Shown one piece after another: positions 740-60,347 of a stretch of DNA of 64,000 nucleotides (the stretch's first letter is position 1; each line of letters opens with the position of its first letter). The notes beneath the pieces were generated by a model. It ran no database searches. It saw only the letters and a list, made by a program, of their open reading frames with translations, and was not told the origin of the DNA. The stretch covers positions 16,860 through 80,859 of the forward strand of contig CAYPFM010000001.1 of NCBI GenBank assembly GCA_964410185.1. Reading direction: 5' to 3'. This stretch comes from an uncultured Candidatus Saccharibacteria bacterium. GTDB lineage: Bacteria > Patescibacteriota > Saccharimonadia > Saccharimonadales > JAUPVS01. A program made the position numbers and the translations under genes.

Positions 740-918
740 AAGAAAAGCGATTCTCTTCTGAGGGTCGCTTTTCTTTGACCGGAGACAAGCTTGGTTCTGC
801 GACTCGGCTGCTTTAGCAGACGAAAGTCGCAGGGTCGCAGAGCGAAAACACGCGCAGAAGCTTGCTTCGAGCATGATTGAGCGACGGAGGCTTTAGCCGA
901 TATTCCTGTCACCCATCA
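740..918 (+). repeat. tRNA-trailer 'echo' module, Pro copy: hairpin plus conserved core plus degenerate copy of the tRNA-Pro 3' end
   Basis: 12-bp hairpin AAAGAAAAGCGA...TCGCTTTTCTTT at 741-779. Core CACGCGCAGAAGCTTGCTTCGAGCATG at 849-875 is shared with the Thr copy. It ends TCCTGTCACCCATCA (904-918), compared with the tRNA 3' end TCCTGTCACCCCGACCA. Confidence 0.6.
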
Positions 919-21745: not shown

Positions 21746-21836
21746 GAGTAAGGGACGGCATCGACGTGCTTGCACGGAGATGTCTCACGGCGAGCGAGTG
21801 CCAAGCCGCAGGCTTGGATCCTCGCGAAACAATAAT

Positions 21837-21998
21837 TGGAGCCACCTAGCAGGAGAACGCTGCGCTACCCCCTGCGGGCCATGCTCGAAGTAAACTTCTG
21901 CGCGTGGCTCTGGTGGTCGAACTGCGGCTACGCCGGACAGTTCGCTCCTTCTTGGTTGTTAAATCTTAAAGTACTGCCAAACGGCAATACTTTAAGAT
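21837..21998 (-). repeat. tRNA-trailer 'echo' module, Thr copy: hairpin plus conserved core plus exact 18-nt copy of the tRNA-Thr 3' end
   Basis: In tRNA sense, a hairpin ATCTTAAAGTA.TGCC/GGCA.TACTTTAAGAT (21962-21998) comes first. Next come CGGC-GTA-GCCG, GTTCGA, CACGCGCAGAAG-TTTA-CTTCGAGCATG (21880-21906) and GTAGCGCAGCGTTC. The module ends in TCCTGCTAGGTGGCTCCA (21837-21854), which is identical to 21999-22016. Confidence 0.7.
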
Positions 21999-31770: not shown

Positions 31771-31802
31771 ATAGTCTTTTCCACAAAAAGTTCTTATTCT
31801 TT

Positions 31803-31832
31803 TTGACTATCGCTAAAAGCTAATGGTAGTAT
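31803..31832 (+). promoter_or_regulatory. putative promoter giving a leaderless or near-leaderless mRNA for paralogue 3
   Basis: TTGACT, 18 nt, (TGG)TAGTAT, then only TGAGCC before the ATG at 31839. No Shine-Dalgarno sequence. Confidence 0.45.
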
Positions 31833-31838
31833 TGAGCC

Positions 31839-32957: not shown

Positions 32958-32983
32958 CCACCACCCAAAACGTGAGCGGTTTC

Positions 32984-33013
32984 TTTGACGAGCGCTAAAA
33001 GCTAATGGTAGTA
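32984..33013 (+). promoter_or_regulatory. putative promoter giving a leaderless or near-leaderless mRNA for paralogue 4
   Basis: TTGACG, 18 nt, TAGTAT, TGAGCC, then ATG (33021). The block GCTAAAAGCTAATGGTAGTATTGAGCCATGAG is repeated verbatim from paralogue 3. Confidence 0.45.
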
Positions 33014-33020
33014 TTGAGCC

Positions 33021-34139
33021 ATGAGAGTGAGCGGGAGAATACACGCCTGGACTAGTGCTGTTTTTGGCATTATTTTTGTGGTGCTCCTGGCACTTATCCC
33101 AACCAGACCAGTCTTAGCCGCCCAAATTACTGACCGTAGCTTAACTTTGCAGGCTGGCGTCAGTGATGGTGGTTCTAAACCTGGTGGTGTCGTCGATCAC
33201 CTGTTTGCCTTCACCATTGGTTCGACCGCCAGTGTTGGCTCGATTCAGTTTCAGTACTGCACCATCGCCGTTGGTACTTGCACGACACCAACCGGCCTGG
33301 TAACCACCGGCGCCAGTATGGGAACCCAGGCTGGAGCTACTGGTTTTACACTCGTGAACACGACCAATGGCGCACCATACATCACTCGCACAGCAGCAAG
33401 CATATCCAGTAGCACGGCCGTAAGTTACCAGCTTGTAACCGTCACCAACCCGACCACCACCAACCAGACCTTCTTTGTTCGTATCAATACTTACGCCTCG
33501 ACAAATGCCACTGGTAGCCCAATTGACACCGGTGTCGTCGCCGCGAGTACCTCCACGCAGGTAGTTCTGTCGGGGGTGATGCCTGAATCCTTGATCTTTT
33601 GCACCGGTGGAACCGTCAGCACAACTGGGGGCATACCAGACTGCTCAACAGCCACGAGCGGTGCGGTTAGCTTTAATCAGCTCTTCTCGCCTACCTCAGC
33701 GGCCACAGCGACGTCGCAGATGGCTGCCTCGACAAATGCTAGTGCTGGCTATGTTATTAGCGTTAACGGGGCCACAATGACGTCAGGAGCCAATACTATT
33801 ACTGCCCTGACTGCGGCGACAGCAGCTGCGATTGGTAACGGACAGTTTGGGTTGAACCTCGTCACCAATACTACGGCGGCTTCTAGCCCTGCCGTTGGTG
33901 CTGGTATTGCCCCTACCTCAAACGGAACAGACCTCAAAGGTCAGCCACTATCTGGGTACAACACTGCTGATACTTTTAAGTTTAATTCTGGTGATACCAT
34001 CGCCAATAGTGCCGTCAGTGGCGCCGGGCCAACCAATGCGCAGATCTATACAACTTCTTACATCGTCAACGTGCCTGGTAGTCAGCCAGCTGGTACCTAT
34101 ACAACGACATTGACCTATATTTGTACTCCAACATTTTAG
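33021..34139 (+). CDS. secreted fibre-subunit-like protein, paralogue 4 (372 aa)
   Basis: Same architecture and the same C-terminus ...VPGSQPAGTYTTTLTYICTPTF. The middle region is more diverged. Confidence 0.85.
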   Translation: MRVSGRIHAWTSAVFGIIFVVLLALIPTRPVLAAQITDRSLTLQAGVSDGGSKPGGVVDHLFAFTIGSTASVGSIQFQYCTIAVGTCTTPTGLVTTGASMGTQAGATGFTLVNTTNGAPYITRTAASISSSTAVSYQLVTVTNPTTTNQTFFVRINTYASTNATGSPIDTGVVAASTSTQVVLSGVMPESLIFCTGGTVSTTGGIPDCSTATSGAVSFNQLFSPTSAATATSQMAASTNASAGYVISVNGATMTSGANTITALTAATAAAIGNGQFGLNLVTNTTAASSPAVGAGIAPTSNGTDLKGQPLSGYNTADTFKFNSGDTIANSAVSGAGPTNAQIYTTSYIVNVPGSQPAGTYTTTLTYICTPTF

Positions 34140-34185
34140 AAATATTTTCTAAAATACCCCTGTTCATAAAATAGTGGTTATTCTT

Positions 34186-34215
34186 TTGACTATCGCTAAA
34201 TGCTCATGGTAGTAT
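34186..34215 (+). promoter_or_regulatory. putative promoter giving a leaderless or near-leaderless mRNA for paralogue 5
   Basis: TTGACT, 18 nt, TAGTAT, TGAGCC, then ATG (34222). Confidence 0.45.
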
Positions 34216-34221
34216 TGAGCC

Positions 34222-35343
34222 ATGAGAGTGAACGGACGAGGGTTTCTTAGTGTTAGTGCGGCTTTTTCTGCACTACTCTTCGTTATTATGCTAATAACGC
34301 TTCCGATTCAGGCTGCGGCCGCTACACAGATTACTAACCGGAGTTTGACGCTCATAGCCGGCGCCAGCGATGGTGGTTCCAAGCCAAGCGGTGTTGTTAA
34401 CCACTCCTTCACCTTTACCGTTCCTACCGGTGGTAGTGTCGGTTCAATCCAGTTCTTGTACTGTACAACTCCTAGCATTGCCGCCTGTGTCACCCCAACC
34501 GGCTTATCAACAACATCGGCTACCCTAAGCAGCCAGACCGGTGCTACGGGCTTCACGATGGTTAATGGTACTAACGGCGCTCCTTATATTACTCGCACCG
34601 CAGCAACTATTACCGGTGGCACGACGCTCACCTACCAATTAAACACCATCACCAACCCATCCACTGTTGGTCAATTCTTCGTCCGTATTTCGACCTTTAC
34701 CGCGACAAATGCTACTGGTAGTGCAATTGACGCCGGTAGTGTCGCAGCCAGTACGGCTGCTCAGATTGTGCTAACCGGAACCATGCCTGAATCGATTATC
34801 TTCTGTGCTGGCGGTACTATTAGTACTACTTCTGGCATCCCTGACTGTACCACTGCTACCAGTGGTTCAATCACCTTTGCAAACCTGTTCTCCCCGTCTT
34901 CTACAGAAACCGCTACCTCACAAATGGCGGCGTCAACAAATGCCAGCGCGGGGTATGTCATAACCGTCAACGGGGCCACTATGACGTCAGGATCTGCCAC
35001 CATACCCGCCATGAGTACGGCGACAGGCTCGGTTGTGGGAACCAGTCAGTTTGGAATGAACCTGGTAGCGAATACAACTGCCACGTCCACACCAGCGGTC
35101 GGAGCGGCTATCACGGCTGCTTCTAACGGAACCACCTTGAAGGGACAGGCCCTTACCGGTTACAATACTGCTGATGTCTTTAAGTTTGCGTCGGGTGATA
35201 GTGTAGCCAACAGTGCCGTCAGTGGCGCCGGGCCAACCAACTCACAGATTTATACTGCATCTTATATCATTAACGTGAGTGGTGGTCAGCTCGCTGGCAC
35301 CTATACAACAACATTAACTTACATATGTACGGCAACATTTTAA
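34222..35343 (+). CDS. secreted fibre-subunit-like protein, paralogue 5 (373 aa)
   Basis: Same architecture. The C-terminus is diverged to ...VSGGQLAGTYTTTLTYICTATF. Confidence 0.85.
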   Translation: MRVNGRGFLSVSAAFSALLFVIMLITLPIQAAAATQITNRSLTLIAGASDGGSKPSGVVNHSFTFTVPTGGSVGSIQFLYCTTPSIAACVTPTGLSTTSATLSSQTGATGFTMVNGTNGAPYITRTAATITGGTTLTYQLNTITNPSTVGQFFVRISTFTATNATGSAIDAGSVAASTAAQIVLTGTMPESIIFCAGGTISTTSGIPDCTTATSGSITFANLFSPSSTETATSQMAASTNASAGYVITVNGATMTSGSATIPAMSTATGSVVGTSQFGMNLVANTTATSTPAVGAAITAASNGTTLKGQALTGYNTADVFKFASGDSVANSAVSGAGPTNSQIYTASYIINVSGGQLAGTYTTTLTYICTATF

Positions 35344-35345
35344 CT

Positions 35346-36410
35346 ATGAAAAAAACTATACAATCAACTCTACTCCTGGCCGTATTCACCCTTAGCTTGA
35401 TGTTCGCCAACACCGCCGGTGCTTTGGCAGCAACCGCCCCCAAGGCTCCCGCGGCCGCAAACCCCGCCAACAACGGTCAAGCACTTGAAATCGCCCCACC
35501 GGTCATTTACCTAACGGTCAGTCCTGGCCAAACCGTTAATACCCAGATCCTGATTCGCGATATTTCAAGTGGTTCACTATTAGTTACCGGTCAAGTTAAC
35601 GACTTTGTTGCCTCCGGACAAGACGGTACACCAAAAGTAATCCTCGATAACGACACCAATAACCCCTACGGAATGAAGAATTGGGTCGCCCCGCTACCAA
35701 AACTCCTATTGGTACCTCGTGAAATTAAGAGTCTGCCGGTTACCATCAAGGTCCCTGCTGACGCTTCGCCAGGTGGCCACTACGGCGTTGTCCGCTTTAC
35801 TGCCACCGCTCCATCACTCGAAGGTAACGGCGTGTCCCTGTCTGCTAGTCTTGGCTCACTCATTCTACTAACTGTTAGTGGCAAGACGACCCAGAGCCTA
35901 TCAACCCAGTCCTTTACGGTGAGCAAGGGCGATAAGACCGGTAAGCTATTCGAATCTGGTCCAGTCAGCTTTACTGAAGTACTAAAGAACAATGGTAACG
36001 TCCATGTTCAGCCAGTTGGTCAAGTAACAGTCACTGACTTGTTTGGCAAAAAGCTGGCGGCAGTCAACGTTAATACTCCTCCGGGCAACATTCTGCCAGG
36101 TAGTACCCGTAAATTCACCCAAAAGCTCGACAGCAGTGTTATTGGCAATAAGCACCTATTCGGCCGCTACAAGGCCGTTATGAAGGTCACGTACGGCACA
36201 AACAAGCAGGTTCTCACCAGCACCACCACCTTCTGGGTGATTCCATACAAGCTTATCGGCATCGTCATCCTCATTCTCATCGTTCTCTTCTTCCTGATAC
36301 GCTTCCTCCTCCGCCGCTATAACCGGTACATCCTCAAGCAGGGTGGTCGACAAAAGACTCCAAAGAATCCGCCAACAACACCACAACCACCGCAACACCC
36401 TCAGCAGTAA
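35346..36410 (+). CDS. CscA / WxL-interacting-protein-like cell-surface protein (DUF916+DUF3324-type layout, C-terminal TM anchor; 354 aa)
   Basis: Signal peptide. LEIAPPVIYLTVSPGQTVNTQILIRDISSG...VPADASPGGHYGVVRF in the first half, and a second beta-rich half ending ...TTFWVIPYKLIGIVILILIVLFFLIRFLLRRYNR (TM plus basic stop-transfer). The start is 2 nt after the paralogue 5 stop. Confidence 0.6.
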   Translation: MKKTIQSTLLLAVFTLSLMFANTAGALAATAPKAPAAANPANNGQALEIAPPVIYLTVSPGQTVNTQILIRDISSGSLLVTGQVNDFVASGQDGTPKVILDNDTNNPYGMKNWVAPLPKLLLVPREIKSLPVTIKVPADASPGGHYGVVRFTATAPSLEGNGVSLSASLGSLILLTVSGKTTQSLSTQSFTVSKGDKTGKLFESGPVSFTEVLKNNGNVHVQPVGQVTVTDLFGKKLAAVNVNTPPGNILPGSTRKFTQKLDSSVIGNKHLFGRYKAVMKVTYGTNKQVLTSTTTFWVIPYKLIGIVILILIVLFFLIRFLLRRYNRYILKQGGRQKTPKNPPTTPQPPQHPQQ

Positions 36411-37624: not shown

Positions 37625-40600
37625 ATGGATTTGGGTTTTCTAAAAACATTCCGGCGGCTTTTGGTATTGGCCATCCTTATGGGTGTCTTTTTTGTGTCCC
37701 TGACCTCTGGTACACGACCGGCTCATGCCTCAACCGGAACCAACCAAACCATTAACTTCCAGGGACGCCTGCTCACCTCGAGTGGCGCGGCCGTACCTGA
37801 TGGCTACTACAACATCCAGTTCAAAATCTACCAAGACGGTGATGGCGCCTCTGTTGGTGATACGACCGGTTCCCCAACAGGGACACTGAAGTGGACCGAA
37901 AACTATCTAAACGTTAATTCCCAAGGTGTCAGAGTCTTTAACGGCTACATGTCTGTCTCGCTCGGTTCAGTCAACCCCTTTGGTAGTAGCGTCGACTGGA
38001 ACCAAAACACCTTGTGGCTGTCGATGAACATCGGTAACACCAATGTATCGTGTGCCAGCTTCGCGGTTTGTTCGCCCGATGGTGAAATGACGCCGATGCA
38101 ACCACTGACGTCAGCCGTTTACGCGCTGAACTCCAACCAACTGGGTGGCTTAACCGCCGCCGCGTTTGGCCAACTGGCTGCTAGCCAGACGTTTGTGGGT
38201 GCTAATATCTTCCAGCCAACCACCAATGTAACAGGGGTAAAAGTAATTCAGAGCTCGGCTGGCGCACCCACTGCCGACATTTTTAATGTTCAGTCGGCCA
38301 ACAATACTAACCTCATCCAAGTAACTGGGCCCGCGGCCAATAGTGCGGCCATAACGCTCAGATCGATAGGCACCGGTAACGCCATTACACTCAATTCGGC
38401 TGGTGCGCTTAGTTTCACCGGAGCCGCGGCTTCGGTTTGGGATATCGGGAATAATACCCTTTCCCTGCAAACCACTAATAATGGCGCCATTACCACCGGT
38501 AGTGGCCTTTTGACTGTTGGGGGAAGCCAAACTTTCTCTGGTGCCAACCCTGTTATCAGCACCAGCACCACTAATACCAACATGACCATTCAAACCAACG
38601 GAACCGGTACGTTAACCCTCAATACCACTGGGGCAGGTACTGTTAACGTTGGTACAACCAACACCACCACCGTCGGAATCGGTAACAATACCTCGGGGAC
38701 AGTCGACACCATCACCGGTGGCTCCACCGCTGTAACCGTTGCCAACGGTGGGACTACTGTTAAAACCAGTACCAACAGCACCACCGCCTTCCAAGTCCAA
38801 AACGCCAGCAACGCCGCTGCCCTGTCGGTCGACACCACCTCACAGCGTGTAGGCATTAACAACTCTGCACCAGGGGCCGCCCTCGAGGTTACCGGTGACA
38901 TCTACCTGACCAAAGAAGCCAACCGCGTCATTAAGGTTGATGCCAGTACCACCGCCAGTACTGCCGGTGGTTCCCTTACCCTAGCCGGTGGAACCGGAAA
39001 CGCCGCAGTTGGTGGTGCTGTGAACATTAACGGTGGTACCGCTATTAATAGCGTCGGTGGAGGTGGCGGTGTGAACATTATTGCCGGTAACGCTGCTTCG
39101 GGTAGTGTCAACGCTGGTGGTAGCGTGGTTATTAATAGTGGTGTTGGGGTAACTGCCGGCGCAATCACCTTACAAACCGCCAACTTCTCTTCTACCTTTG
39201 GTGCCACCAACATCAATACCGGTGGTGGTAAGGTACTCATTGGGAGCGCCAACAACGGCGTCCAGATTGATACTGGACAAAACATTAAAACCAACGGTAC
39301 AAACATTACAGCTAACGCCCTGGCCACTCCTGTTATTAGCACCGGTTCGACTGGTTCAAGCTTCTATTACGGAGTTACAGCAGTTAATGGCCAGGGCGAA
39401 ACAATCCTGAGCAACACCGTTGGTATGGCCAGTAGCAGCGCTACAATCTCTTGGGCAGTAGTACCAGGTGCTACCAGCTATAAAGTCTACCGCAACTCTT
39501 CCAACGTTTTTACTAGCGGTTCATTATTTAGAGCGTCAACCGCGAACGGTTTAACCCTGTCCTACACCGACGACGGCACCGCTACCACCGCGGGTCTCCC
39601 GCCTACTTCGGTAACCGGCACAAAACTAACGGTACAGGGTTGGGCCAGCCAAACAGCCAACCTGCAAGAATGGCAAAACTCGGCCGGATCTGCTCTAGCA
39701 GTAGTCGATATCTCTGGCAACATTACCGCTGCCCGTTTCCGCAGCGATGTCTGGCAAGATACAAACAATAACTCTTGGGCTAGTATTACGGGCACCAGCC
39801 CAAGTAGAACTTTGGCATTTGGTAATGCGAGCATTTCTACTATTTCTATCACCCCAAAGAGTGGCGGCGATATCCAATTAGCTGGTGCAACCAAAGTGAA
39901 TTCAACTGGTACTGCTGGTACAGTCGAGAAATTCCGAGTAAATACCCCGACCACTGTCGATAACAGTGCCGCCTCTATCTTGGCGACCGGTGCCACCACG
40001 AGCAAGGGGCTTGTTATCCAAGGTGCCGCCAGCCAAACAGCCAACCTGCAAGAATGGCAAACCAGCGCTGGTGCTAATATGGTCAGCATTACTGCCGCTG
40101 GCGCCCTGCAGGGTGGCAACGCTTCTGGTACTGATGTTGCTGGTACGACCCTCACCATTGCTGGTGGGCAAGGTACTGGTACCGGTAACGGTGGTAACAT
40201 TCTGTTCCGTTATGCTGCTCCGGGCACCACCGGTGCCAGCAACAACGCTCTTGTTACTGCCTGTACTATTTCTGGCACCAATGGCAGCTTTAGCTGTACG
40301 GGGGCTGGTGCTAGTAGCGAACGCTTTGGAGCTGGTTCAACCGCAGCAGGAACAAGTTCAGTTGCGGTGGGCAACACCGCAGGGGCTTCGGGTAACAACT
40401 CCATCGGAATCGGTGCCGGCAGCAGTGCGTCTTCTACAAACAGCATTTCAATTGGTGCTAGCTCTATTGCACTCAATGGTGGTGGCGCTGGTAATATCGC
40501 TATCGGTAGCAGTGCCACGGCCGGCTGTCTGTTCAGTTGTCCTGGTTCAGTTCGTGACATGATAACCCTTGGTTCTAGTTCAACCACCCAGGGTGACTAC

Positions 40601-43600
40601 GGCATCACCATCGGTAACAGTGCTAGCAACACCGGCTTCAACGGCAGCATCGTCATTGGTACGGGCGCCAGTAACACAGCCGGCAATCAACTGGTAATTG
40701 GTTCTAATACTTCATCGATAACAACTGGCTATATTGGTAATGGCGTAACCAACGCGGCACCTGTTGGGTTTACTTTGAATGCCACCGGTAGCAGCACAGC
40801 CGGCACAACTGGCGGGGCGTTGTCGATTGTTGCTGGGGCGGGCACGAATGCTACTACCGGTAGCAATGGTGGCGCCTTGAACCTACAGGGTGGTGCAGCC
40901 GATAGCTCTAGTGGCACTGGTCGCACCGGTGGCGCCGTCAATATTAACGGTGGCGTTGGTTCACGCAACTTGGCTGGTGGAGCTATTAACTTAACTGGCG
41001 GAACTGGCGGAACTAGTGCCAGCGGTTCTGGCGGTAACGTAGTTATTAACGGTGGTGCGGCCGGTGGTGGTGGTGCTGGTGGTAGCGTTAGTCTACAGGG
41101 TGGCGCAGGCACAACCGGTATTGGCGGTAACTTTACAATTACATCTGGTAACAGCAGCTCAGCGGCCAGTGGCAACCTTTCGCTTGATGTTGGTACGGCT
41201 GGCACAACCACTGGAAGTATCTCAATCGGAGCCAACAACACTAATACTATAGGAATAGGAAACGCGACAGCCGCTACTGCTATTACCATTCAGGGCGGCA
41301 CTGGCTCCAGTGCAATCTCGATCATGTCTGGCGCCGCAGGAACGATTAGGATCGGCGATAATGGCGTCGCCAGCACCGTCCAGATTGGTAATACGACTGG
41401 CGCAGTGACCCAGACAGTTAACATCGGTACTAACCCGACAGCGAGCTCGCAGACAAACGTGACAATCGGCTCAACCATTGGAGCTTCGGCAACCACCATC
41501 ATAAGTGGTACGGGCAACTTGAACCTACAAACGCAAGGTACGGGCAACTTAAACATTGGTGCCAATGCCATCGCCCAAAACATCATTATCGGCAATAGCA
41601 CCGGTGGAACCAATGTTTCCATTAACTGTGGTACCGGCACCTGTGGTCTTGGTACTAACGCAACCGATCACTCCACGACCGTTGGATCGACCACTGGTGT
41701 GTCACTAACGACCATTCAGGGCGGTTCGGCCGGCATCTCGCTGAATGGTGCAGTTTCAACTTCTGGTGCCATAAACGGCGTTACCCTCAGCGCCAGTGCC
41801 CTCACCTTCTCTGGTGCCAACCCAGTTATTGGTGCCAGCACCACTGATACTGGTGTCACACTGCAATCGAATGGAACTGGTACCCTCACCCTGAACTCAT
41901 CTGGCGCCGGTACGGTAAACCTTGGTACCACCAATACCACTACGATCGGCATTGGTAACTCAACTGCGGCCACTGCCGTTACATCAACCGGTGGCGCAAC
42001 CGTACAGACCGTTGCCAACACTGGGGTTACCATCAAAACAAATACCAATAGCATCTCAGCCCTACAAGTTAAGGACAGCAGCAACAACGTTGCCTTTAAT
42101 GTTGATACCACCACTGGCGCCGTTGGCACCGTCAGCACTAGCGCAGCCAGCACGGCTTCACGCGCACTGTTGCTACAGAGTGGTTCCGTCACCGGCACAA
42201 CTTCTAACTCTGGCGATGTAACCCTGCAATCTGGTGGGTCAAGTACTTCTGGTAACAGTGGTGCATTGGCGTTGAAGACCGGTGACGCCGGGGTTGGTAA
42301 CTCTGGTGCCATTAGTCTCGATGTTGGTTCGGCTCCTTCGGGCACGGTTGGCACCATTTCAATTGGTACCAGCAACGCCCGCTCAATCACTATTGGTAAT
42401 ACCTCTAGCGGCACTTCGACCGTTATCAACGGCGGCACGGGCGTTGCTGGAGTTTCGATTCAGTCAGCTGCCAGCGGCGGCATCAGTATTGGTACCAGCG
42501 CTAATACATCTATCTTGTTTGGTACCGGTGCAGTTGGTGGCACTATCAAGATTGGTGGCACCACCCAGACAGGCACAATTACACTCGGCCAATCAACTGC
42601 CAGCAACATCATCGAAATCGGTGGCGGCACCACTAGCAGTGGCAACATTCAGACCGTTAACATTGCTAACGGCACCGGCGCTGGCACAGCTACTAATGTA
42701 AACATCCTCTCGGGTGTTGGGACGGCCGGCACCGGCACCTTGTCACTTGGTAATAATACCCGTGTCACCCAAATCGACCTCGGCAACGTCGCTGCCGCTG
42801 CCGCTAGAACTATCAACGTTGGCACTGGAGCTAATACTGTCGGTATCGACACCATTAATATCGGCACCGGTAGTACTTCGGTGGCTAGCGGTAAGACCAT
42901 CCATATTGGTGATACCGCCCCAACTGGCTCCGGCACCAACGTCCTCACGCTTGGTACTACCGTTAATGCCTCAACCACGACTATTCAGGGTGGTACGGGC
43001 GCTTCGGCCATCGCTCTGACCCAAGCTACCGGTGGTGGCATTGTGATTGGTGGAAGTGGCGCGGCCTCCACCGTATCTGTCCTTTGTGGCGCTGGTACGG
43101 CCACAAGCTGTGGTTTTGCTAATAACGCTACCGACCACAGTACCTATATTGGTTCTGGCACCGGTGTTTCGGTCACCACCATTCAAGGTGGTAGCGGTGG
43201 TGTGGTCATCAACAGCAATACTGCCATTAATGGCACCATTAATAGCAATACCTTTGACGCCAGCACCCTCACCTTCTCTGGTGCTAACCCAGTTATTAGC
43301 GCCAGCACCACAAACACCGGCATCTCCGTCCAAGCCAATGGGACTGGTACGCTGACGCTTAATACTACCGGCGCCGGTACGGTTAATGTTGGCACCACCA
43401 ACACCACCACTGTTGGCATTGGTAACAATACTGCCGCAACTAGTACCACCATTACCGGTGGTACTGGGGCTAACGCCGTTTCAATTCAAACTGGTACGGG
43501 CGGTACCATTAGCTTGGGCACGACTGGTATCGCGAGCACCATCCAAATCGGTACAACCACTGCGGTTGCCACTCAAACCATTGGCATCGGTAACAATGCG

Positions 43601-46600
43601 ACCGCAACTTCTGTTAACAACATCACTATCGGTAACCTGCTGGGCTCTAGCAACACGCTTGTCCAGGGTGGCACCGGCGCCTCAGCCATTGTGTTAGCAC
43701 AAGGCACAGGTGGTGGCGTTGTCATCGGTACCACCGGTGCTGGTTCAACCGTTTCCGTCCAGTGTGGTGCCGGCACGGCAACCACCTGTGGTTTTGCTAA
43801 TAACGCTACCGACCACAGCACCTACGTTGGTTCAGTCAGCGGCGTTTCGGCCACCAACATCCAGAGTGGTACCGGCGGCATTACCTTGAGCGGCAACACC
43901 AGCGTAACGGGCACCTTAGGTACGACTGGCACCATTAATGGTGACACCCTGTCTACCACTGCCCTGACCTTCACCGGCGCCAACCCTGTCATCAGCACGA
44001 CCTCAACAAACTCGGGCTTCACATTACAGGCCAATGGCACTGGTACATTGACCCTGAACACGAGCGGCTCGGGCACCGTCAATGTTGGTACCACCAACAC
44101 CACCACTGTTGCAGTTGGTAATACGGGTGGTGGTGCGACCGTTACTCTGACCGGTGGCGCCACCACAACGACTATTGCCAACTCTGGCGAAACCATTAAG
44201 ACCTCAACCAATAGCAGTACCGCCTTCCAGGTCCAAAATAACGCCGGTGCGGCAATTCTGGCCGTTAATACCAGCACACCGCAAGTATCCTTTACTGCTA
44301 CAGCTGCCAACGCCACAAACGGTACTCCTCTGGTTAATACCAGCTACACCAACACCAGCACCACGGCCGCTCTAGAAGTTGCACAGCAAATTACCCTCAG
44401 TGATACAGGCGTAGTTACTACTGGGCAAGACGAAGCAAACGGAATGGCAATATCCGTAACTCATACTGGCCAAACCGGTGGCACTATATTAACGAAAGGA
44501 ATCTCCGTAACGAGCACCGGCGATAACGCTGGCTCTGGTACATCGGCCAACTGGGCAATCAACGGGTTGGCGGTTGGCTCATCAGATGCTGGCACTGGTG
44601 TTGCCGGCGGCTTTTTGGCGGCTGGTAGTGGCACCACGACTAGTGCCATTGGAACAAGTGGTGGCGTTGGCACATATTTGTTCACTGGGAACGTCGTCAC
44701 TGCAATTGGTGTTCAGGGGGCTATTAGCGCAACCGGTGGCGCCGGTACTATTAGCACGGCTTACGGCATGCAGGTTTCATCTGCTGCTGTCGGCGCCGGC
44801 GGCGCCATTGGAGCCAACTATGGTATTCAAGTTCAGACCCAGACCGTCGGTACCACAAACTATGGTGTTTCGATCGGTACTGCCTCAACCCAAACCCTGC
44901 GAGTTGGCGATGATGCTGATGGAACGACCGCCAATGCCGGCATCAGCTTTGGTGCCACGGCCGGCACGGCTGCAAACCTGTATCGTGGTGGTAACAACCA
45001 GCTCAAGACCGACAGTGACTTCCTGGTAAAATCAGGCACAAACTCAACCTCTGCCCTGTCCGTGCAGAACTCAAGCGGCACTAATATCTTCGCCGTTGAC
45101 ACCATTAACGGCACAGTTGGTACTGTTAAAACTACAACAGCTAGTACAAACTCGCAGGTTCTGACTCTGCAAAGTGGTACCGTGGTTGGCACTGGCTCCA
45201 CCTCCGGTGCAGTCATCCTTCAATCTGGTGCTTCAACAGTATCTGGTGGAACTGGTAACCTTACCCTAGCAACCGGCAACGCTACATCAGGCAGCTCAGG
45301 TAGCATTACCTTAGACGTTGGTTCGGCTACTGGTACATTTGGAAACATAAGCATCGGCACCGTCAATGGCCGAACTATTGGTGTAGGTAATACAACAGCT
45401 GCAACAGCAGTTACTATCCAGGGTGGTACCGGATCATCGGCAATTATCATGAGTCAAGGCGCTGGCGGGGCCATTACCATCGGCGGCTCAGGTGCTGCTT
45501 CCACCGTAGCAGTCCTTTGTGGCGCTGGCACCTCAACAAACTGTGGTTTTGCTAACAACGCTACTGATCACACAACCGTCGTCGGCTCGACTACCGGAAC
45601 CTCTACCACCACTGTTCAGGGCGGGTCTGGCGGCATCACTTTGGCCGCTGGCTCAATCGGCTTGAATGCGGCCACAATCTCAACAAATCAATCAAGCGTT
45701 AGCTTTATGGATACAACAGTTACAACCGTGACGGCTCTCCAATCAGCCACGTCAATCACCATGGGCGCAACTTCTGGCACGCTCACACTGCGCAATGCGG
45801 CCATTACTTTAGGCAGCGCTGCTGGCTCCGGATCGTTCACAAATAATGGTGGAACAACAAATATAACCTTGCCGTTGGGTGACTTCCCAGCCGGCGGTTC
45901 AATTGGAACAAATAGTAGTACAGTTGATATCTACACGTCGATTAGCATCAACCAATCAACGGCTGGCCGAACACTCACCATCCCAACCCCAAGTGCCAAC
46001 ATTACCTATGGTCGCCTGCTCTACTTGTCCAACATTGGTTCGGCCAGCTTTACGCTTGGCAGCGCCACCATTAGTGCCGGCACAACCGCTACCTTGGTTT
46101 GGGCAAACACAACGGGCGGCGCCAGCTGGCAATTTGCCGGTGCTGACGCAGCCTCGATTCTCAACCAAAACAGCATCGACCAAACCGCTAACTTCCGAAT
46201 TAGTGGTACTGGCCGAGCTAATACCAGCTTCACGGCTCCATTATTCGATTCAATCACTGGTGCGGTAGGTGTTGGTACATCGACTGCCTCAGGCGTAAAC
46301 ATTGGTAATGGTACCTCTGGAACCTCAGTTTCGGCCAGTTGTGGTGCCACCGCTACTTGTGGTTTTGGTAATAATGCCACCGACCACACAACTGCCGTCG
46401 GTTCGGCATCCGGTACTTCGGCCACCACTATCAACGCCGGTAGCGCTGGGGTCCTGGCAAAATCAACCAGCACAACTGGCTTCCAGGTACAGAACGCCAG
46501 TGGTACCAGTGTCTTGATTGTCGACACCACCAACCGCCAGCTCAAAGTTATGGAAAATGCTGGTAGCACCAACTACGCCCTGATTTACTACGACACCGCT

Positions 46601-48103
46601 ACCACCACCGCCAACTATACCGCCAGCTCCGGTACGGTCGCCGTTGGTACTGGTGCCGGTGCTATCTCCATCGTGGCCGGTACAAGTTCAAGTATTACTA
46701 TCACTAGTAACGCCGCTTCCCTATGGCGCACCACCGCTGGTACGCTGACACTGCAAAGTGGTACGAACTCGAACTTAGTCCTGACCCCATCGGGTACCGG
46801 CATGGCCACCATTAGCGGCTCGGCCAAGTTTGTACTCGGTCAAAATGCTGGTGACCCCGCCACCTGTACGGTTGGTGCGTTGATCTACAACACAACCTCT
46901 AACACACTCCGCGGTTGTCAGGGTTCAACCCCAACCTGGAACGATGTTATCAATGTTACGACCCCAACCACCCAGGCTACCTACACCGCTTCGACCGGTG
47001 GTACCACTGCCGAAATCAAGCTCGACACCACCCGTGGCGCACTTGATGTTCAGGGTGATAACGCTGGCGCCGTCACCGACTTGTTCAACGTCCGCGCCGG
47101 TACGGCTTCTGGTCTTGGCCAGAGTGTCTTTGATGTCGCCAGCTCTGGTAACGTTACCATTCAGACATCGGCTGGTGTTGCAGTTATGGACACGACTGGT
47201 ACAAGCATTGAAGTTGGCCAGGGCGCCACTGCTCACTCCACCAACCCAATCGTCCTTGTCCTCGACAACTACCAACCTATCACGGCTGGCTCAGCCCCAA
47301 CTGAGCAAGATGGTGCCATGTACTACAACGCCGACCAAAACATCTTTATGTGTGGCTTAAACGGCACCTGGACCAACTGTGCCATTAACTCCATCCAAAG
47401 TTCATATGTGTTTGAAGATGAGTTCTTGGGCGGTACAACTTCGGCCGCCACCGGTACCAGCTTCCAGGGTGTTGGCGCGCTGGGTTGGAACGTCAACGCC
47501 ACTACCTCTTGTGCTGCCGCCTACAACCAAACCGGCCCTGCCCTAGCCCATGATCACCCTGGTACTCTGCGCCTGACAGCCGGCAACGCCAGTGGTAATG
47601 GCTGTGCCATGACCCAAGCCGGAACTGCTGCCGGAACTGCCACCCTCAGCCAGATTATTGGTGCTGGCGACGTCTTTAAGACCAACGTCGCGATTGGTGC
47701 GCAAACTGGTACCATGCGTGTCGGTTGGACCAACCAAACTTCTAACACGGCTCCTACCTCTGGTGCGTGGTGGGAATATAACACCACGGCAGACGCCACT
47801 CACCTCCGTTACTGCTACGCCAACAACACTACTGCCGTCTGTGCCGCCGGCCCTGTCATCGCCGCCAACACGTGGGCTGAACTCGAAATCTACATCAACA
47901 GCGCCAGCAACATCACCTTCGTCACGAACATCAACGGCACCCCTACCAGCGTTACTACCACCAGCGCCTTCGATACTGGTGCCACCAACAAGCTTGGCCC
48001 AGGCGCCACCTGCTATGCCTCAACCACCACAGCCCTGAACTGTTACATCGACTACATCCAATGGAGTGGCGTCAACACCAGCACCCACGGTATTAGGGAC
48101 TAG
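37625..48103 (+). CDS. giant repetitive surface fibre protein (3,492 aa) with FN3-like insert and C-terminal lectin/LamG-like domain
   Basis: A single uninterrupted ORF. Signal peptide ...TRPAHA|STGTNQ. G/T/S/A/N-rich beta-solenoid-type repeats. Four LTF(S/T)GANPVI...NGTGTLTLN...GTVNVGTTNTTT modules. Five C-x(3-6)-C-G-[FL]-x-[TN]-N-A-T-D-H motifs. ATSYKVYRNS (FN3-like). A non-repetitive C-terminal region of about 330 aa. Confidence 0.9.
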   Translation: MDLGFLKTFRRLLVLAILMGVFFVSLTSGTRPAHASTGTNQTINFQGRLLTSSGAAVPDGYYNIQFKIYQDGDGASVGDTTGSPTGTLKWTENYLNVNSQGVRVFNGYMSVSLGSVNPFGSSVDWNQNTLWLSMNIGNTNVSCASFAVCSPDGEMTPMQPLTSAVYALNSNQLGGLTAAAFGQLAASQTFVGANIFQPTTNVTGVKVIQSSAGAPTADIFNVQSANNTNLIQVTGPAANSAAITLRSIGTGNAITLNSAGALSFTGAAASVWDIGNNTLSLQTTNNGAITTGSGLLTVGGSQTFSGANPVISTSTTNTNMTIQTNGTGTLTLNTTGAGTVNVGTTNTTTVGIGNNTSGTVDTITGGSTAVTVANGGTTVKTSTNSTTAFQVQNASNAAALSVDTTSQRVGINNSAPGAALEVTGDIYLTKEANRVIKVDASTTASTAGGSLTLAGGTGNAAVGGAVNINGGTAINSVGGGGGVNIIAGNAASGSVNAGGSVVINSGVGVTAGAITLQTANFSSTFGATNINTGGGKVLIGSANNGVQIDTGQNIKTNGTNITANALATPVISTGSTGSSFYYGVTAVNGQGETILSNTVGMASSSATISWAVVPGATSYKVYRNSSNVFTSGSLFRASTANGLTLSYTDDGTATTAGLPPTSVTGTKLTVQGWASQTANLQEWQNSAGSALAVVDISGNITAARFRSDVWQDTNNNSWASITGTSPSRTLAFGNASISTISITPKSGGDIQLAGATKVNSTGTAGTVEKFRVNTPTTVDNSAASILATGATTSKGLVIQGAASQTANLQEWQTSAGANMVSITAAGALQGGNASGTDVAGTTLTIAGGQGTGTGNGGNILFRYAAPGTTGASNNALVTACTISGTNGSFSCTGAGASSERFGAGSTAAGTSSVAVGNTAGASGNNSIGIGAGSSASSTNSISIGASSIALNGGGAGNIAIGSSATAGCLFSCPGSVRDMITLGSSSTTQGDYGITIGNSASNTGFNGSIVIGTGASNTAGNQLVIGSNTSSITTGYIGNGVTNAAPVGFTLNATGSSTAGTTGGALSIVAGAGTNATTGSNGGALNLQGGAADSSSGTGRTGGAVNINGGVGSRNLAGGAINLTGGTGGTSASGSGGNVVINGGAAGGGGAGGSVSLQGGAGTTGIGGNFTITSGNSSSAASGNLSLDVGTAGTTTGSISIGANNTNTIGIGNATAATAITIQGGTGSSAISIMSGAAGTIRIGDNGVASTVQIGNTTGAVTQTVNIGTNPTASSQTNVTIGSTIGASATTIISGTGNLNLQTQGTGNLNIGANAIAQNIIIGNSTGGTNVSINCGTGTCGLGTNATDHSTTVGSTTGVSLTTIQGGSAGISLNGAVSTSGAINGVTLSASALTFSGANPVIGASTTDTGVTLQSNGTGTLTLNSSGAGTVNLGTTNTTTIGIGNSTAATAVTSTGGATVQTVANTGVTIKTNTNSISALQVKDSSNNVAFNVDTTTGAVGTVSTSAASTASRALLLQSGSVTGTTSNSGDVTLQSGGSSTSGNSGALALKTGDAGVGNSGAISLDVGSAPSGTVGTISIGTSNARSITIGNTSSGTSTVINGGTGVAGVSIQSAASGGISIGTSANTSILFGTGAVGGTIKIGGTTQTGTITLGQSTASNIIEIGGGTTSSGNIQTVNIANGTGAGTATNVNILSGVGTAGTGTLSLGNNTRVTQIDLGNVAAAAARTINVGTGANTVGIDTINIGTGSTSVASGKTIHIGDTAPTGSGTNVLTLGTTVNASTTTIQGGTGASAIALTQATGGGIVIGGSGAASTVSVLCGAGTATSCGFANNATDHSTYIGSGTGVSVTTIQGGSGGVVINSNTAINGTINSNTFDASTLTFSGANPVISASTTNTGISVQANGTGTLTLNTTGAGTVNVGTTNTTTVGIGNNTAATSTTITGGTGANAVSIQTGTGGTISLGTTGIASTIQIGTTTAVATQTIGIGNNATATSVNNITIGNLLGSSNTLVQGGTGASAIVLAQGTGGGVVIGTTGAGSTVSVQCGAGTATTCGFANNATDHSTYVGSVSGVSATNIQSGTGGITLSGNTSVTGTLGTTGTINGDTLSTTALTFTGANPVISTTSTNSGFTLQANGTGTLTLNTSGSGTVNVGTTNTTTVAVGNTGGGATVTLTGGATTTTIANSGETIKTSTNSSTAFQVQNNAGAAILAVNTSTPQVSFTATAANATNGTPLVNTSYTNTSTTAALEVAQQITLSDTGVVTTGQDEANGMAISVTHTGQTGGTILTKGISVTSTGDNAGSGTSANWAINGLAVGSSDAGTGVAGGFLAAGSGTTTSAIGTSGGVGTYLFTGNVVTAIGVQGAISATGGAGTISTAYGMQVSSAAVGAGGAIGANYGIQVQTQTVGTTNYGVSIGTASTQTLRVGDDADGTTANAGISFGATAGTAANLYRGGNNQLKTDSDFLVKSGTNSTSALSVQNSSGTNIFAVDTINGTVGTVKTTTASTNSQVLTLQSGTVVGTGSTSGAVILQSGASTVSGGTGNLTLATGNATSGSSGSITLDVGSATGTFGNISIGTVNGRTIGVGNTTAATAVTIQGGTGSSAIIMSQGAGGAITIGGSGAASTVAVLCGAGTSTNCGFANNATDHTTVVGSTTGTSTTTVQGGSGGITLAAGSIGLNAATISTNQSSVSFMDTTVTTVTALQSATSITMGATSGTLTLRNAAITLGSAAGSGSFTNNGGTTNITLPLGDFPAGGSIGTNSSTVDIYTSISINQSTAGRTLTIPTPSANITYGRLLYLSNIGSASFTLGSATISAGTTATLVWANTTGGASWQFAGADAASILNQNSIDQTANFRISGTGRANTSFTAPLFDSITGAVGVGTSTASGVNIGNGTSGTSVSASCGATATCGFGNNATDHTTAVGSASGTSATTINAGSAGVLAKSTSTTGFQVQNASGTSVLIVDTTNRQLKVMENAGSTNYALIYYDTATTTANYTASSGTVAVGTGAGAISIVAGTSSSITITSNAASLWRTTAGTLTLQSGTNSNLVLTPSGTGMATISGSAKFVLGQNAGDPATCTVGALIYNTTSNTLRGCQGSTPTWNDVINVTTPTTQATYTASTGGTTAEIKLDTTRGALDVQGDNAGAVTDLFNVRAGTASGLGQSVFDVASSGNVTIQTSAGVAVMDTTGTSIEVGQGATAHSTNPIVLVLDNYQPITAGSAPTEQDGAMYYNADQNIFMCGLNGTWTNCAINSIQSSYVFEDEFLGGTTSAATGTSFQGVGALGWNVNATTSCAAAYNQTGPALAHDHPGTLRLTAGNASGNGCAMTQAGTAAGTATLSQIIGAGDVFKTNVAIGAQTGTMRVGWTNQTSNTAPTSGAWWEYNTTADATHLRYCYANNTTAVCAAGPVIAANTWAELEIYINSASNITFVTNINGTPTSVTTTSAFDTGATNKLGPGATCYASTTTALNCYIDYIQWSGVNTSTHGIRD

Positions 48104-58956: not shown

Positions 58957-58977
58957 CTATGTAAACCCTATGTCTAC
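58957..58977. repeat. two CTATGT(A/C)(A/T)AC direct repeats at the 3' end of the regulator gene
   Basis: CTATGTAAAC (58957-58966) and CTATGTCTAC (58968-58977), the same motif as the array at 60053-60100. Confidence 0.5.
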
Positions 58978-60026
58978 ATATGAGCTGTTGAGTGCGCGCG
59001 TTTAATCATGAATTCTACGTTATCGTTCATATTGACGCAGCGGATTTCAATCTCGGGGTGTTTTGCGCCAAAAACCCTGATGATTTCATCGGCAAAGGCC
59101 TGCCCAATAGTTGGCACATTATCGAAATCCAGGATAATCACTTTGAACTTCTTTTCGACATTACTCAGCACGCGCCGCGCCTGTGAGCGTGAAACATATA
59201 CGGTCCCCATGGTGTATAACTTGATCATAATGAGGGTTTTGTCAAAAGCAAAACTCTGAGGATCGGAGTAGTATTGTTGAAAAATATTGCTAAGGTGTCG
59301 GTTGCTGTGCAAATTTATTCTAAACGTTACTTGCGTGCCCTTCAGGCCTCTGTCTCTTGATTCGACAAAGACATCGTCGATTGTATTGTCAACTCGTAGC
59401 CGAGTAGCAAAACTTTCTAGTATAAATTCGTCGGCGCTTTTAGAGGTAAAGAAGATGCCTTCGCCCGAGTGTGCTTTTGGTGCTGTGGTTGTTTTACCTT
59501 TTAAAAGCTCCTGGATGGCTTCGAGATCGGAACTGAGATTGTACTTCTTTTTAACATTCTCAAACACACCAACGCCAAAGTCTCTGATAGTGAAAACCAA
59601 ATCGCGGCCGTCCCGATACAATTCAACTTTGATACGGTCAGAATGGGAGTGTTCAATAGCGTTATTGAGCATTTCGGTAAAGGCAAAATTGACAATACTA
59701 CTGGTGTTATCGTTGAGTTTTTTTGCCAATACGGCCTTTGAGGTTAGTTCCTCATAAACCAGATGATCCGACAAGCCATTATTTTGCAAAATGCGAGTTT
59801 CTTTATCAATTAAGGTGTCAGCTTTGCTTGGCAAAGAGTAGAACGTGAAGCGCTTTGAGCCAGCAACCACAAGCTCACCCCTTGTTACGAGGTCGCTGAG
59901 AATACCGGATACATACTGACGACTAGCGAACTTTGGGTCAAGTTGCGCCAAGACCTGTGATACCTGAATTTTGTCCAAACTTTTGGCGAGCCGTAGGATT
60001 ACTTTCTCGATCTCTTGACGTTTCAT
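58974..60026 (-). CDS. wHTH plus GHKL-type ATPase-like plus STAS-like (DUF4325-type) regulator
   Basis: The N-terminal wHTH-like 70 aa, FAFTEMLNNAIEHSHS...FTIRDFGVGVF (HATPase_c N and G boxes), and C-terminal ILDFDNVPTIGQAFADEIIRVF, typical of DUF4325. Confidence 0.65.
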   Translation of the reverse strand: MKRQEIEKVILRLAKSLDKIQVSQVLAQLDPKFASRQYVSGILSDLVTRGELVVAGSKRFTFYSLPSKADTLIDKETRILQNNGLSDHLVYEELTSKAVLAKKLNDNTSSIVNFAFTEMLNNAIEHSHSDRIKVELYRDGRDLVFTIRDFGVGVFENVKKKYNLSSDLEAIQELLKGKTTTAPKAHSGEGIFFTSKSADEFILESFATRLRVDNTIDDVFVESRDRGLKGTQVTFRINLHSNRHLSNIFQQYYSDPQSFAFDKTLIMIKLYTMGTVYVSRSQARRVLSNVEKKFKVIILDFDNVPTIGQAFADEIIRVFGAKHPEIEIRCVNMNDNVEFMIKRAHSTAHM

Positions 60027-60052
60027 AGCGGTGATTATAGCTTCATATTGTT

Positions 60053-60100
60053 TCTATGTCAACTACTTAATTTTCTATGTAAACTCTATGTCGACTATGT
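60053..60100. promoter_or_regulatory. iteron/operator-like array of TCTATGT(C/A)(A/G)AC direct repeats upstream of the regulator gene
   Basis: Repeats start at 60053, 60074 and 60085, with a partial fourth at 60096. Spacing is 21 and 11 nt (helical phasing). Confidence 0.45.
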
Positions 60101-60101
60101 T

Positions 60102-60269
60102 TGGCGGGCCCGACCGGGTGAACGCTGCGCTACTGCCCTGCACCTGGTCTCGGAATGAATTCCTGCGAGCAGGTTTGGCCATCGAACCGGGGCTTCGCCC
60201 TATCCGGTTCAAATCTAGGCGGGAGTCAGCAAAGAAAAAACACCAACATTGCTGCTGGTGTTTTTTCTT
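60102..60269 (-). repeat. tRNA-trailer 'echo' module, Asp copy: hairpin plus conserved core plus exact 16-nt copy of the tRNA-Asp 3' end
   Basis: In tRNA sense, a hairpin AAAGAAAAAACACC...GGTGTTTTTTCTTTG comes first. Next come GGGC-GAA-GCCC, GTTCGA, CTCGCAGGAA-TTCA-TTCCGAG and GTAGCGCAGCGTTC. The module ends in CCGGTCGGGCCCGCCA (60102-60117), identical to 60270-60285. Confidence 0.7.
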
Positions 60270-60347
60270 TGGCGGGCCCGACCGGATTCGAACCGGCGAT
60301 CTCCTCCGTGACAGGGAGGCGTGTTAGGCCAGCTACACCACGGGCCC
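60270..60347 (-). tRNA. tRNA-Asp (anticodon GTC), CCA encoded
   Basis: Reverse complement: acceptor GGGCCCG/CGGGCCC, anticodon arm CCTCC-CTGTCAC-GGAGG, T arm GCCGG-TTCGAAT-CCGGT, discriminator G, then CCA. Confidence 0.9.

Follow-up and report, generated by a model that had tools for sequence, protein, structure and literature searches.

The 64,000-nucleotide stretch of an uncultured Candidatus Saccharibacteria genome analyzed here (hereafter the window) carries on its minus strand an intact tRNA-Asp(GTC) gene with an encoded CCA end (60347..60270; detected by ARAGORN and by Rfam model RF00005 with 63.7 bits), which is followed by a 168-bp module ending in a second copy of the tRNA 3' end. 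The duplicated sequence, CCGGTCGGGCCCGCCA, occurs exactly twice in the window, at 60270-60285 and 60102-60117, both times on the minus strand. As chance alone would produce only 0.66 matches across the entire window even when up to three mismatches are tolerated, this exact 16-nt pair located 168 nt apart is not a chance occurrence, and the duplication reported in the initial annotation of this DNA is borne out. Read on the plus strand, the direct repeat spans 18 nt (TTTGGCGGGCCCGACCGG). The second copy, hereafter the tail (60102..60119), matches tRNA-Asp positions 59-76 at 17 of 18 nt, the last 16 being exact and T60 being replaced by C (ACCCGG... vs. ATCCGG...). The copy thus breaks at the border between T-loop and T-stem, the break being at 58|59 throughout the family described below. 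A third copy, which the initial annotation had envisaged as a boundary of the 53-60 kb region, is absent from the window: the best other matches show 3-4 mismatches and lie inside open reading frames (ORFs).

Several features succeed one another within the 152 bp that lie between the direct repeats. The hairpin announced after tRNA-Asp is real: it is a palindromic A-tract/stem/T-tract structure (60230..60271, minus strand) whose 19-nt arms, 60230-60248 and 60253-60271, are 95% complementary. On the minus strand it reads CA-AAGAAAAAACACCAGCA / GCAA / TGTTGGTGTTTTTTCTT-TG (arms at 60271-60253 and 60248-60230), so that it takes in the terminal CA of the tRNA and begins directly there. Its outer ends, AAAGAAAA/TTTTCTTTG, are common to the Asp copy and to a copy located after tRNA-Pro. 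It looks like a terminator, although a simple terminator scan did not call it, and like part of the left end of the cassette that we propose below. A 112-nt stretch separates this palindrome from the CCGGTCGGGCCCGCCA copy at 60117..60102. It contains a degenerate inverted copy of the tRNA-Asp 3' part (60204..60225, minus strand, the plus strand reading CCGGTTCAAATCTAGGCGGGAG), which matches the T-arm/acceptor region at 80% over 20 nt (CCGGTTCAAATCTAGGCGGG at 60204-60223 on the plus strand, vs. CCGGTTCGAATCCGGTCGGG in tRNA-Asp) and whose final 7 nt form the 5' arm of hairpin A. Hairpin A (60184..60210, minus strand), identified from minimum free energy folds, consists of an outer stem, GAACCGG/CCGGTTC, and an inner mini-hairpin, GGC-GAA-GCC. 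It overlaps a direct copy of tRNA positions 50-58 (CCGGTTCGA; 60182..60190, minus strand), the last base of which is exactly A58. Next comes a conserved 62-nt insert with a core of type 1 (60120..60181, minus strand), supported by covariance model R1 and by covariation (see below). This insert contains hairpin B (ACCTG-C-TC-GCA-GGAA-TTCA-TTCC-GA-GA-C-CAGGT; 60142-60174, minus strand) and the 14-mer GTAGCGCAGCGTTC (60120-60133, minus strand), which includes a GCGCAGC mini-hairpin. No promoter-like site was found between hairpin and module at the Asp site.

Two sibling modules are present in the window. One of them follows tRNA-Thr(CGT) (21837..21998, minus strand) and has a hairpin, a core and a tail identical to the tRNA at 18/18 nt (TCCTGCTAGGTGGCTCCA). 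The other follows tRNA-Pro(GGG) (740..915, plus strand), with a core of type 2 and a decayed tail of which only TCCTGTCACCC is left. A degenerate pattern derived from the three window copies retrieved 61 metagenomic loci, about 58 of which are clearly homologous (fetched loci are designated by L numbers below). Covariance model R1, which was built from 50 metagenomic modules and excluded the window sequences, yields only three matches in the whole window, namely the Pro (819-910, 72.9 bits), Thr (21846-21936, 62.8 bits) and Asp (60111-60201, 58.8 bits, E = 2.9e-14) modules. At the Asp site, the R1 motif begins 100 nt past the tRNA end. Numerous additional copies are recognized by the model in the fetched loci (five of them in the 5.6-kb locus L064, for instance), and the modules of L019/27, L026, L046, and L067 sit at an orthologous locus with the gene order Xer-NDK-tRNA-Arg-PPIase-tRNA-Asp (PPIase, peptidyl-prolyl isomerase). 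The host belongs to the Saccharimonadales, the name given in public records to the neighboring PPIase and to the relatives of a large serine recombinase (LSR) considered below. Searches with Rfam 15 (gathering and E≤10 thresholds) detected no family other than tRNA in the window and only tRNAs in 20 module-bearing loci, the best non-tRNA matches being far under the cutoff. When genome contigs were scanned with hairpin B plus the exact 14-mer, only four chance matches were obtained, none of them close to a tRNA. There is no sign of a phage origin, as scans of viral contigs for the module gave zero matches. Our search of the literature on Saccharibacteria for partial tRNAs, islands or integrases found nothing relevant, and the tRNA-trailing module is a widespread Saccharibacteria repeat that apparently had not been catalogued previously.

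The layout of the module is constant over about 55 loci and 12 tRNA types: a tRNA gene is followed by a hairpin, an inverted 3' partial copy, a direct copy of positions ~45-58, a covarying insert of ~60 nt, and positions 59-76. Part A is a tRNA gene with an encoded CCA. Part B is the palindromic A-tract/stem/T-tract hairpin, which starts at or inside the CCA and differs from one unit to the next. In part C, the motif TGGNN, the complement of NNCCA, is often present, and a degenerate copy of the tRNA 3' part in inverted orientation comes next, inverted copies of this kind being a general feature of the family. Part D is hairpin A. In its outer stem, the 5' strand of the T-stem together with TTCG is paired with its complement, and its inner mini-hairpin is capped by C(GNA)G. 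Its 3' arm is the direct tRNA copy, the end of which falls on position 57 or 58 in the majority of 35 modules. The insert, part E, holds hairpin B, composed of a variable 4-6 bp stem, C-N-C/G-A-G, a GCA/GA internal loop, a 4-bp stem and a tetraloop. Downstream of hairpin B, inserts read ...GCAGGSAGTAGCGNAGCGTTN in type 1 (Asp, Thr) and ...GAGCGGARGAGGC-loop-GCCGAY in type 2 (Pro). With the tail as part F, the module thus contains the tRNA 3' part (~45-76) split at 58|59 by the insert, plus an inverted copy.

The tail obeys a simple rule. In 22 modules from the window and metagenomes, belonging to 10 tRNA types, it equals the last 15-19 nt of the upstream tRNA, and in 12 of them it is identical to tRNA positions 59-76 at 18/18 nt. 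It even tracks lineage-specific variants of the acceptor stem, such as GAGCCC in L067, and the tRNA-Asp modules of L046 and L054 have the full 18/18 tail ATCCGGTCGGGCCCGCCA. The proposal that the core is shared while the tail follows the neighboring tRNA therefore holds well beyond the window. The accompanying idea, that the tail is made or selected locally, was right in spirit, but the tail is not the only tRNA-specific part, as the direct copy of positions ~45-58 and the inverted copy are specific too. The Asp and Gln modules illustrate how much of the unit is shared. The junction of the window Asp module, ...GCGTTCAC|CCGG, recurs in the tRNA-Gln module of L072, whose insert is 94% identical to the Asp insert; the hairpin and hairpin A are also homologous in the two modules, hairpin A of L072 having tRNA-Gln T-stem bases. 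At this shared junction, the window module has AC at positions 59-60 where the tRNA has AT, which, judging from the sequences, would fit a cassette-borne site with a crossover to its right.

The structure of the hairpins is under selection. For hairpin B, 94.5% of the cells are paired in 22 type 1 sequences (vs. 25-45% in slid controls) and 97.8% in 30 type 2 sequences (vs. 23-42%), with 0 of 500 shuffles reaching the score in either set; two of the four inner pairs were held to R/Y by the search pattern in these comparisons, while the outer stem was unrestricted and varies freely (GC/CG/UA/AU). In the type 1 set, 57 cells are changed on both sides, vs. 19.6±3.6 in shuffles. The two-tier form of hairpin A recurs in 35 modules, where 98 cells are compensatory when compared with the tRNA sequence, pairing being kept where the sequence departs from the tRNA (for example, GGCTC/GAGCC in L046). 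Loops are strongly biased with respect to strand: C(GNA)G mini-hairpins occur 36 times and exact GCGNAGC 45 times on the tRNA-sense strand, vs. once on the opposite strand and 5.2±2.2 times in shuffles. GCGNAGC/GCGNNAGC is the motif of the "extraordinarily stable mini-hairpin DNA" (PMC13037366), and the 4-nt loop variants found in modules (GTCA, GTTA, GATA) are not GNRA. The restriction of GCGNAGC-type loops to one strand is a hint, not proof, of a folded single-stranded DNA species. A kink-turn or bulge-helix-bulge had been considered for hairpin B and was rejected by eye, since the covarying register joins GCA and GA in one internal loop.

Modules also form head-to-tail arrays, in which every unit opens with positions 59-76 and its own hairpin and closes with a tail. 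In L017, three units follow tRNA-Arg; in L073, tRNA-Asn is followed by two units, a 96-aa ORF and a third unit; L026, L035, L057, and L064 carry arrays of two units each. Some units contain cargo, placed between the left hairpin and the right arm (genes for VOC, hydrolase, alcohol dehydrogenase (ADH) and TetR proteins in L065/L063; other cases in L061, L049, and L073). At 11 loci, no tRNA is found within 0.8-5 kb upstream of the module and accessory genes are located there instead (VOC, alpha/beta hydrolase, Zn-ADH, TetR, HxlR, NUDIX, HIT, DUF2726, Hypoth_Ymh).

Occupation of the orthologous PPIase-tRNA-Asp locus varies among relatives. One module is present in the window, in L046 and in L067, and two are present in L026. 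In L006, a 3.6-kb LSR element precedes two modules with cargo between them, while L081 carries an LSR element alone and the locus is empty in L010 and L012. Relatives are syntenic upstream of tRNA-Asp and wholly different downstream, where the sequence is hypervariable. Based on Xer identity, the nearest relatives (91-93%) include empty sites, whereas farther ones (82%, 69%) are filled. Similarly, the tRNA-Thr site of L067 is empty, with tRNA-Thr and tRNA-Gly lying 29 nt apart. The duplicated 16-mer might have turned out to be, in all relatives, the attR of a large island with its own integrase, which the initial annotation regarded as the outcome that would make it a conventional scar. The relatives contradict this, with cargo-less modules at tRNA-Asp in L046, L054, and L067 and empty sites in L010 and L012. 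In L006, the outermost tail (16327-16342, GGGCGCGCCA) has the acceptor variant GGGCGCG, which corresponds to the tRNA-Asp of L026 (5' GCGCCCG) rather than to the tRNA of L006 itself; this foreign-type tail suggests, at the sequence level, an exchange between lineages. Cassette traffic may import foreign tRNA 3' ends, which could drive compensatory changes in acceptor stems.

As a separate observation on this locus, Logan contigs L005, L007, L009, and L011, four independent short-read assemblies from close relatives, end in tRNA-Asp at the same point (...CTAACACGCC). Such a shared break point would be expected if the downstream sequence were repeated or polymorphic in the population. An exact-protein look-up of the window PPIase returned a 1.6-kb contig only, and the Logan contigs ending in tRNA-Asp are uninformative on the downstream side.

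We consider, with a probability of about 0.55, that the 168 bp at the Asp site are a cargo-less unit from a family of non-autonomous, tRNA-anchored mini integrative cassettes, the tail being an att-type duplicate. This reading builds on the conserved anatomy, the tail rule, the covariation of the hairpins, the arrays with their cargo, and the presence or absence of modules at orthologous loci. Such cassettes would use the 3' end of tRNA genes as attachment site. Their left end would provide a replacement for tRNA positions 59(61)-76 together with the hairpin that now ends the tRNA gene, and their right end would be a structured recombination-site arm comprising the inverted copy, hairpin A and the ~60-nt insert with hairpin B. 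Site-specific recombination, rather than another copying process, would occur inside the shared 16-18 bp, so that the tRNA would stay complete and the resident 3' end would be displaced to the far side, where it would form the tail, an attL/attR-type duplicate. The attL/attR logic of integration into tRNA sites is classical and has also been described for tycheposons. Recombination with displacement of the resident 3' end would explain the arrays, as repeated events would produce tandem units and small blocks of accessory genes behind tRNAs. The recombinase would act in trans, none being encoded in or beside the module. The arm may work as a folded single strand of tRNA-sense DNA that imitates the T-arm/acceptor region of the tRNA gene in its duplex form, the inverted copy lying opposite positions 50-58 and 59-72 and the insert branching out at 58|59. 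Uncommon traits of the family are a gene-free unit of 170 bp, the service of at least 12 tRNAs by swapping a few bases, and a structured arm on the cassette side. As each module holds the direct ~45-58 copy and the inverted copy, the whole module would be tRNA-specific before insertion, which appears to fit an element-carried att-type site better than a simple target-site duplication. The natural competence of Saccharibacteria (PMC10633639) makes the entry of single-stranded DNA plausible.

Several observations weigh against the cassette reading. No recombinase is linked to modules in about 60 loci, and the neighboring Xer-like gene is syntenic in relatives with or without modules. In the LSR elements of L006 and L081, the junction differs, being located within the last ~9 nt, and the 18-nt repeat is not found at the far end. 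Neither an excised circle nor an exact pair of empty and filled sites with identical flanks is at hand and, to our knowledge, a pseudo T-arm split by an insert is without precedent in known att sites. With regard to the postulated single-stranded form, folding yields a mean z of about -1 for either strand, whether RNA or DNA parameters are used, and gives no clear strand signal; G.T and A.C mismatches are about equally frequent in insert helices, and covariation cannot separate single-stranded DNA from RNA.

The candidate recombinases encoded in the vicinity were inspected. The only tyrosine recombinase in reach is of the generic XerC/D/XerA type (128.5 bits on TIGR02249, for a cutoff of 265), and it was rejected as a marker of the module system because it is syntenic in module-bearing and module-free relatives alike. 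Tblastn searches with Xer and LSR queries found nothing in 53-60 kb, and Pfam searches on the eight ORFs downstream of the Asp module revealed no recombinase. In distant Saccharibacteria, an LSR family (854 matches at E<1e-30) is encoded at the same PPIase locus, convergent against the tRNA-Asp 3' end, the final codons of the LSR ORF being antisense to the tRNA. Elements of this kind are found in L006 (11169-14806), L075-L080, L081-L085 (8001-9548), and, at tRNA-Ser(CGA), in L064 (1588-2991). The L006 element, 3.6 kb long, contains the LSR gene, a 76-aa ORF, a small-terminase-like ORF and a Fic-like ORF. Given its different junction and the lack of a far-end 18-nt repeat, the LSR was rejected as the mobilizer of modules and is treated here as occupying the site in its own right. 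At its right end (14760-14806), the LSR element of L006 contains GCAGTAGCAAAG, an 11/12 match to the region of the type 1 14-mer, which lies ~20 nt ahead of a degenerate tail, TTCCGCTAAGGCCCGCCA.

The Asp module might instead be a conventional scar, made of the attL and attR arms left after internal deletion of an integrase-bearing island or prophage in tRNA-Asp. This gene is indeed a proven integration hot spot, as an LSR element of 3.6 kb directly follows it in L006 and such elements are also found there in the distant L081-85, and decaying islands typically show arrays of partial tRNAs, tycheposons being an example (bioRxiv 10.1101/2020.12.28.424599). Random deletions, however, are not expected to produce units of such uniform size (~154-189 nt) with a covarying core common to 12 tRNA types and more than 50 loci; moreover, the same core is found on different tRNAs, no integrase remnant adjoins any module, and the serine-recombinase elements have different junctions. 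We consider a scar to be unlikely. An improbable alternative, in our view, is that the module functions as a structured RNA, transcribed by read-through from the tRNA or cargo genes, which would mimic a tRNA acceptor/T-arm with a 3' CCA and serve the processing or stability of the cognate tRNA or act as its decoy. The covarying hairpins would be consistent with this, as would the Thr module, which folds as a closed multi-branch structure (z = -2.6), the retention in the tail of the acceptor 3' strand, discriminator base and CCA, the frequent pairing of the 5' TGGNN with the NNCCA end, and the restriction of loop types to the tRNA-sense strand. Yet a terminator-like hairpin precedes the module, which lacks a promoter-like site of its own and matches no Rfam family, and the Asp copy folds no better than shuffles (z = +0.69), the mean z being about -1 as mentioned above. 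Cores also persist while tails decay (Pro module, L072), tandem arrays and presence or absence among close relatives suit a mobile DNA unit, and the GNA/GNNA loops (GTCA, GTTA, GATA) fit DNA mini-hairpins better than GNRA RNA loops (PMC13037366).

Mobility could also reside in the insert alone: the ~60-nt insert would be a tiny mobile element, akin to a miniature inverted-repeat transposable element (MITE) or an intron, which lands at 58|59 of T-loops and is preserved only where other elements have left partial tRNA copies that are dispensable. Consistent with such a T-loop-specific insertion, L048 has a full-length tRNA-Ser(CGA) whose T-loop is interrupted by a type 2 insert and which has no intact copy next to it, two tandem inserts are found in L047/L055, and the insert 3' end (GCGTTC / GCCGAY) resembles the left half of a T-loop. 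Furthermore, the same insert (94% identity) is found in Asp and Gln contexts, and one hairpin-A lineage can carry different insert types (window vs. L006). Nevertheless, hairpin, hairpin A loop, and layout are also homologous between the Asp and Gln modules, making the whole module the conserved unit, and an uninterrupted partial copy (45-76) is seen nowhere in arrays. The L048 case can arise by recombination between two 45-58 repeats, and in-silico splicing restored a full-length tRNA at only one of 65 sites, which also leaves an intron unsupported. With 60 nt, the insert would be smaller than any self-splicing intron known to us, and we know of no transposase that serves a unit of this kind. 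A mobile insert is very unlikely to account for the family.

Two observations concern the inserts themselves. In L047 (183-340), L055, L074 (510-700), and L033/L069, two inserts lie in tandem or nested in one module, and the second of two tandem inserts starts directly after the GCGTC end of the first, so that it looks as if the 3' end of an insert can itself act as a target. The interrupted tRNA-Ser(CGA) of L048 is located on the minus strand at ~5470-5660 (oriented 7210-7370) and has an AT-rich, promoter-like region upstream. It is either a dead gene produced by recombination between 45-58 repeats or a gene whose insert is removable from the RNA.

Among known systems, tycheposons of Prochlorococcus (bioRxiv 10.1101/2020.12.28.424599) resemble the modules in being attached at the tRNA 3' part, in being flanked by a full tRNA and a partial copy, in integrating repeatedly at one site so that older units are moved outward, in including cargo-only or degraded units, and in residing in streamlined host genomes. 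In contrast, a module can be as short as ~170 bp without an integrase, its partial copy is fixed at 18 nt (59-76), it has a covarying ~60-nt core splitting a pseudo T-arm at 58|59 as well as an inverted tRNA copy, and a single module family occupies at least 12 tRNA types. By the usual signs of an integrase-bearing island, the Asp site shows direct tRNA 3' repeats and presence or absence among relatives, but has no recombinase between the repeats. Integron attC cassettes (PMC8946536, PMC12614218) are likewise small, mostly devoid of an integrase and stacked in arrays, each ending in a 60-140-nt imperfectly palindromic site with a conserved structure, a variable sequence and strand-specific features. 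In both systems, a few bases past the crossover belong to the next unit, and single-stranded DNA from transformation is a known substrate of attC cassettes. Unlike integrons, modules are found with neither an integron integrase nor an attI/Pc platform, their junctions are GCGTTN|ATCC or GCCGAY|ATCC instead of RYYYAAC ... GTTRRRY with its GTTRRRY core, and they are anchored on a tRNA gene, with cargo in mixed orientation and often with its own regulators.

Xer-dependent integrative mobile elements (IMEX) such as the CTX phage use a folded single-stranded attP. They share with our proposal a folded strand mimicking a duplex target, tandem build-up at one site and a host recombinase acting in trans, but their target is dif rather than a tRNA, the module has no dif-like arms, and nothing ties Xer to modules. 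Single-strand origins of the ssoA type, found on rolling-circle plasmids (PMC5703833, PMC4598088), are also strand-specific structured single-stranded elements of ~160 nt; type 1 cores hold TAGCG(T/A/C), reminiscent of CS-6 (TAGCGT), and some cores hold CCGAGAAA as in RS_B. These short motifs are, however, not kept across module types, TAGCG being restricted to type 1 cores and CGAGAAA to some modules, and homology to ssoA was rejected, R1 giving no palA match on pT181 (E = 1.1, elsewhere). Nor does the module have the makeup of a transposon generating target-site duplications (MITE- or casposon-like), for which terminal inverted repeats and a target-independent sequence are expected: its left hairpin is unrelated to its right end (GCGTTC), and internal segments are target-specific. 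Compared with tRNA-primed retroelements, the 18-nt length and the 58|59 boundary agree, but the copy always lies beside its own tRNA gene; no reverse transcriptase was seen in the loci inspected, where no systematic search for one was made.

More tentatively, and with a probability that we judge to be low, tRNA genes might serve Saccharibacteria as anchor points for an integron-like system of gene capture. Small cassettes, either without cargo or loaded with accessory or defense genes, would then enter or circulate as single-stranded DNA through competence or conjugation-type transfer. Folded with the help of its GNA mini-hairpins, the ~130-nt module would imitate the T-arm/acceptor duplex of the tRNA gene, the insert forming a branch at 58|59. 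A recombinase supplied in trans by the host would then place the cassette at the T-loop/3' end of the cognate gene. Target choice would be set by a few re-programmable bases in the T-stem and acceptor strand. Saccharibacteria and other members of the Candidate Phyla Radiation have tiny genomes with few recognized mobile elements, so that their route of accessory gene gain is unclear. One module family that is located at the 3' side of at least 12 tRNA genes, forms arrays and lies at the far end of small groups of accessory genes would explain how variable regions originate, model R1 providing a sequence tag to find such regions in metagenomes. It would also indicate a recombination system in which a handful of bases within a structured site encode the choice of target. 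As cultivated Saccharibacteria are transformable (PMC10633639), the idea is directly testable and could yield a tool for integration at tRNA sites.

The surroundings of the Asp module in the window agree only in part with the initial annotation. Past the tail lies a gene on the minus strand (60026..58974) encoding a protein with a wHTH-HATPase_c-DUF4325 architecture. Its promoter matches the sigma-70 consensus at 12/12 positions (TTGACA-17-TATAAT, 60062..60034) and is overlapped by three TCTATGT(C/A)(A/G)ACT repeats (TCTATGTNNACT, 60053-60097). Since these repeats are absent from other modules, they are not part of the module; first described as an iteron-like array, they are operator-like in their position over the promoter of the next gene and probably represent an autoregulatory operator, as far as the sequence indicates. 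The 53-60 kb block was correctly described as accessory-looking, its genes being accessory in character (sugar transferase, hydrolase, VOC, PNPOx-bPH, and unknowns). All but one of them lack a counterpart downstream of the tRNA-Asp of relatives, a 269-aa ORF being 50% identical to its counterpart in L012.

Between tRNA-Thr (or its module) and tRNA-Gly lies a spacer that varies in length from 29 nt (L067, 6269-6297) to ~250 nt and is occupied by unrelated, GC-rich, structured-looking inserts (window, 21746-21837; L046, 1-200; L026, 6915-7164), the L026 spacer having no homology to the module. The 92-nt stretch of the window opens with CGCGAG, like the 5' end of tRNA-Gly, and a different element may use the 5' side of this gene. 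Finally, the ORF list of the window plus strand includes five to six tandem ORFs of ~361-373 aa (30652-36410), followed by a 3492-aa ORF (37625-48103).

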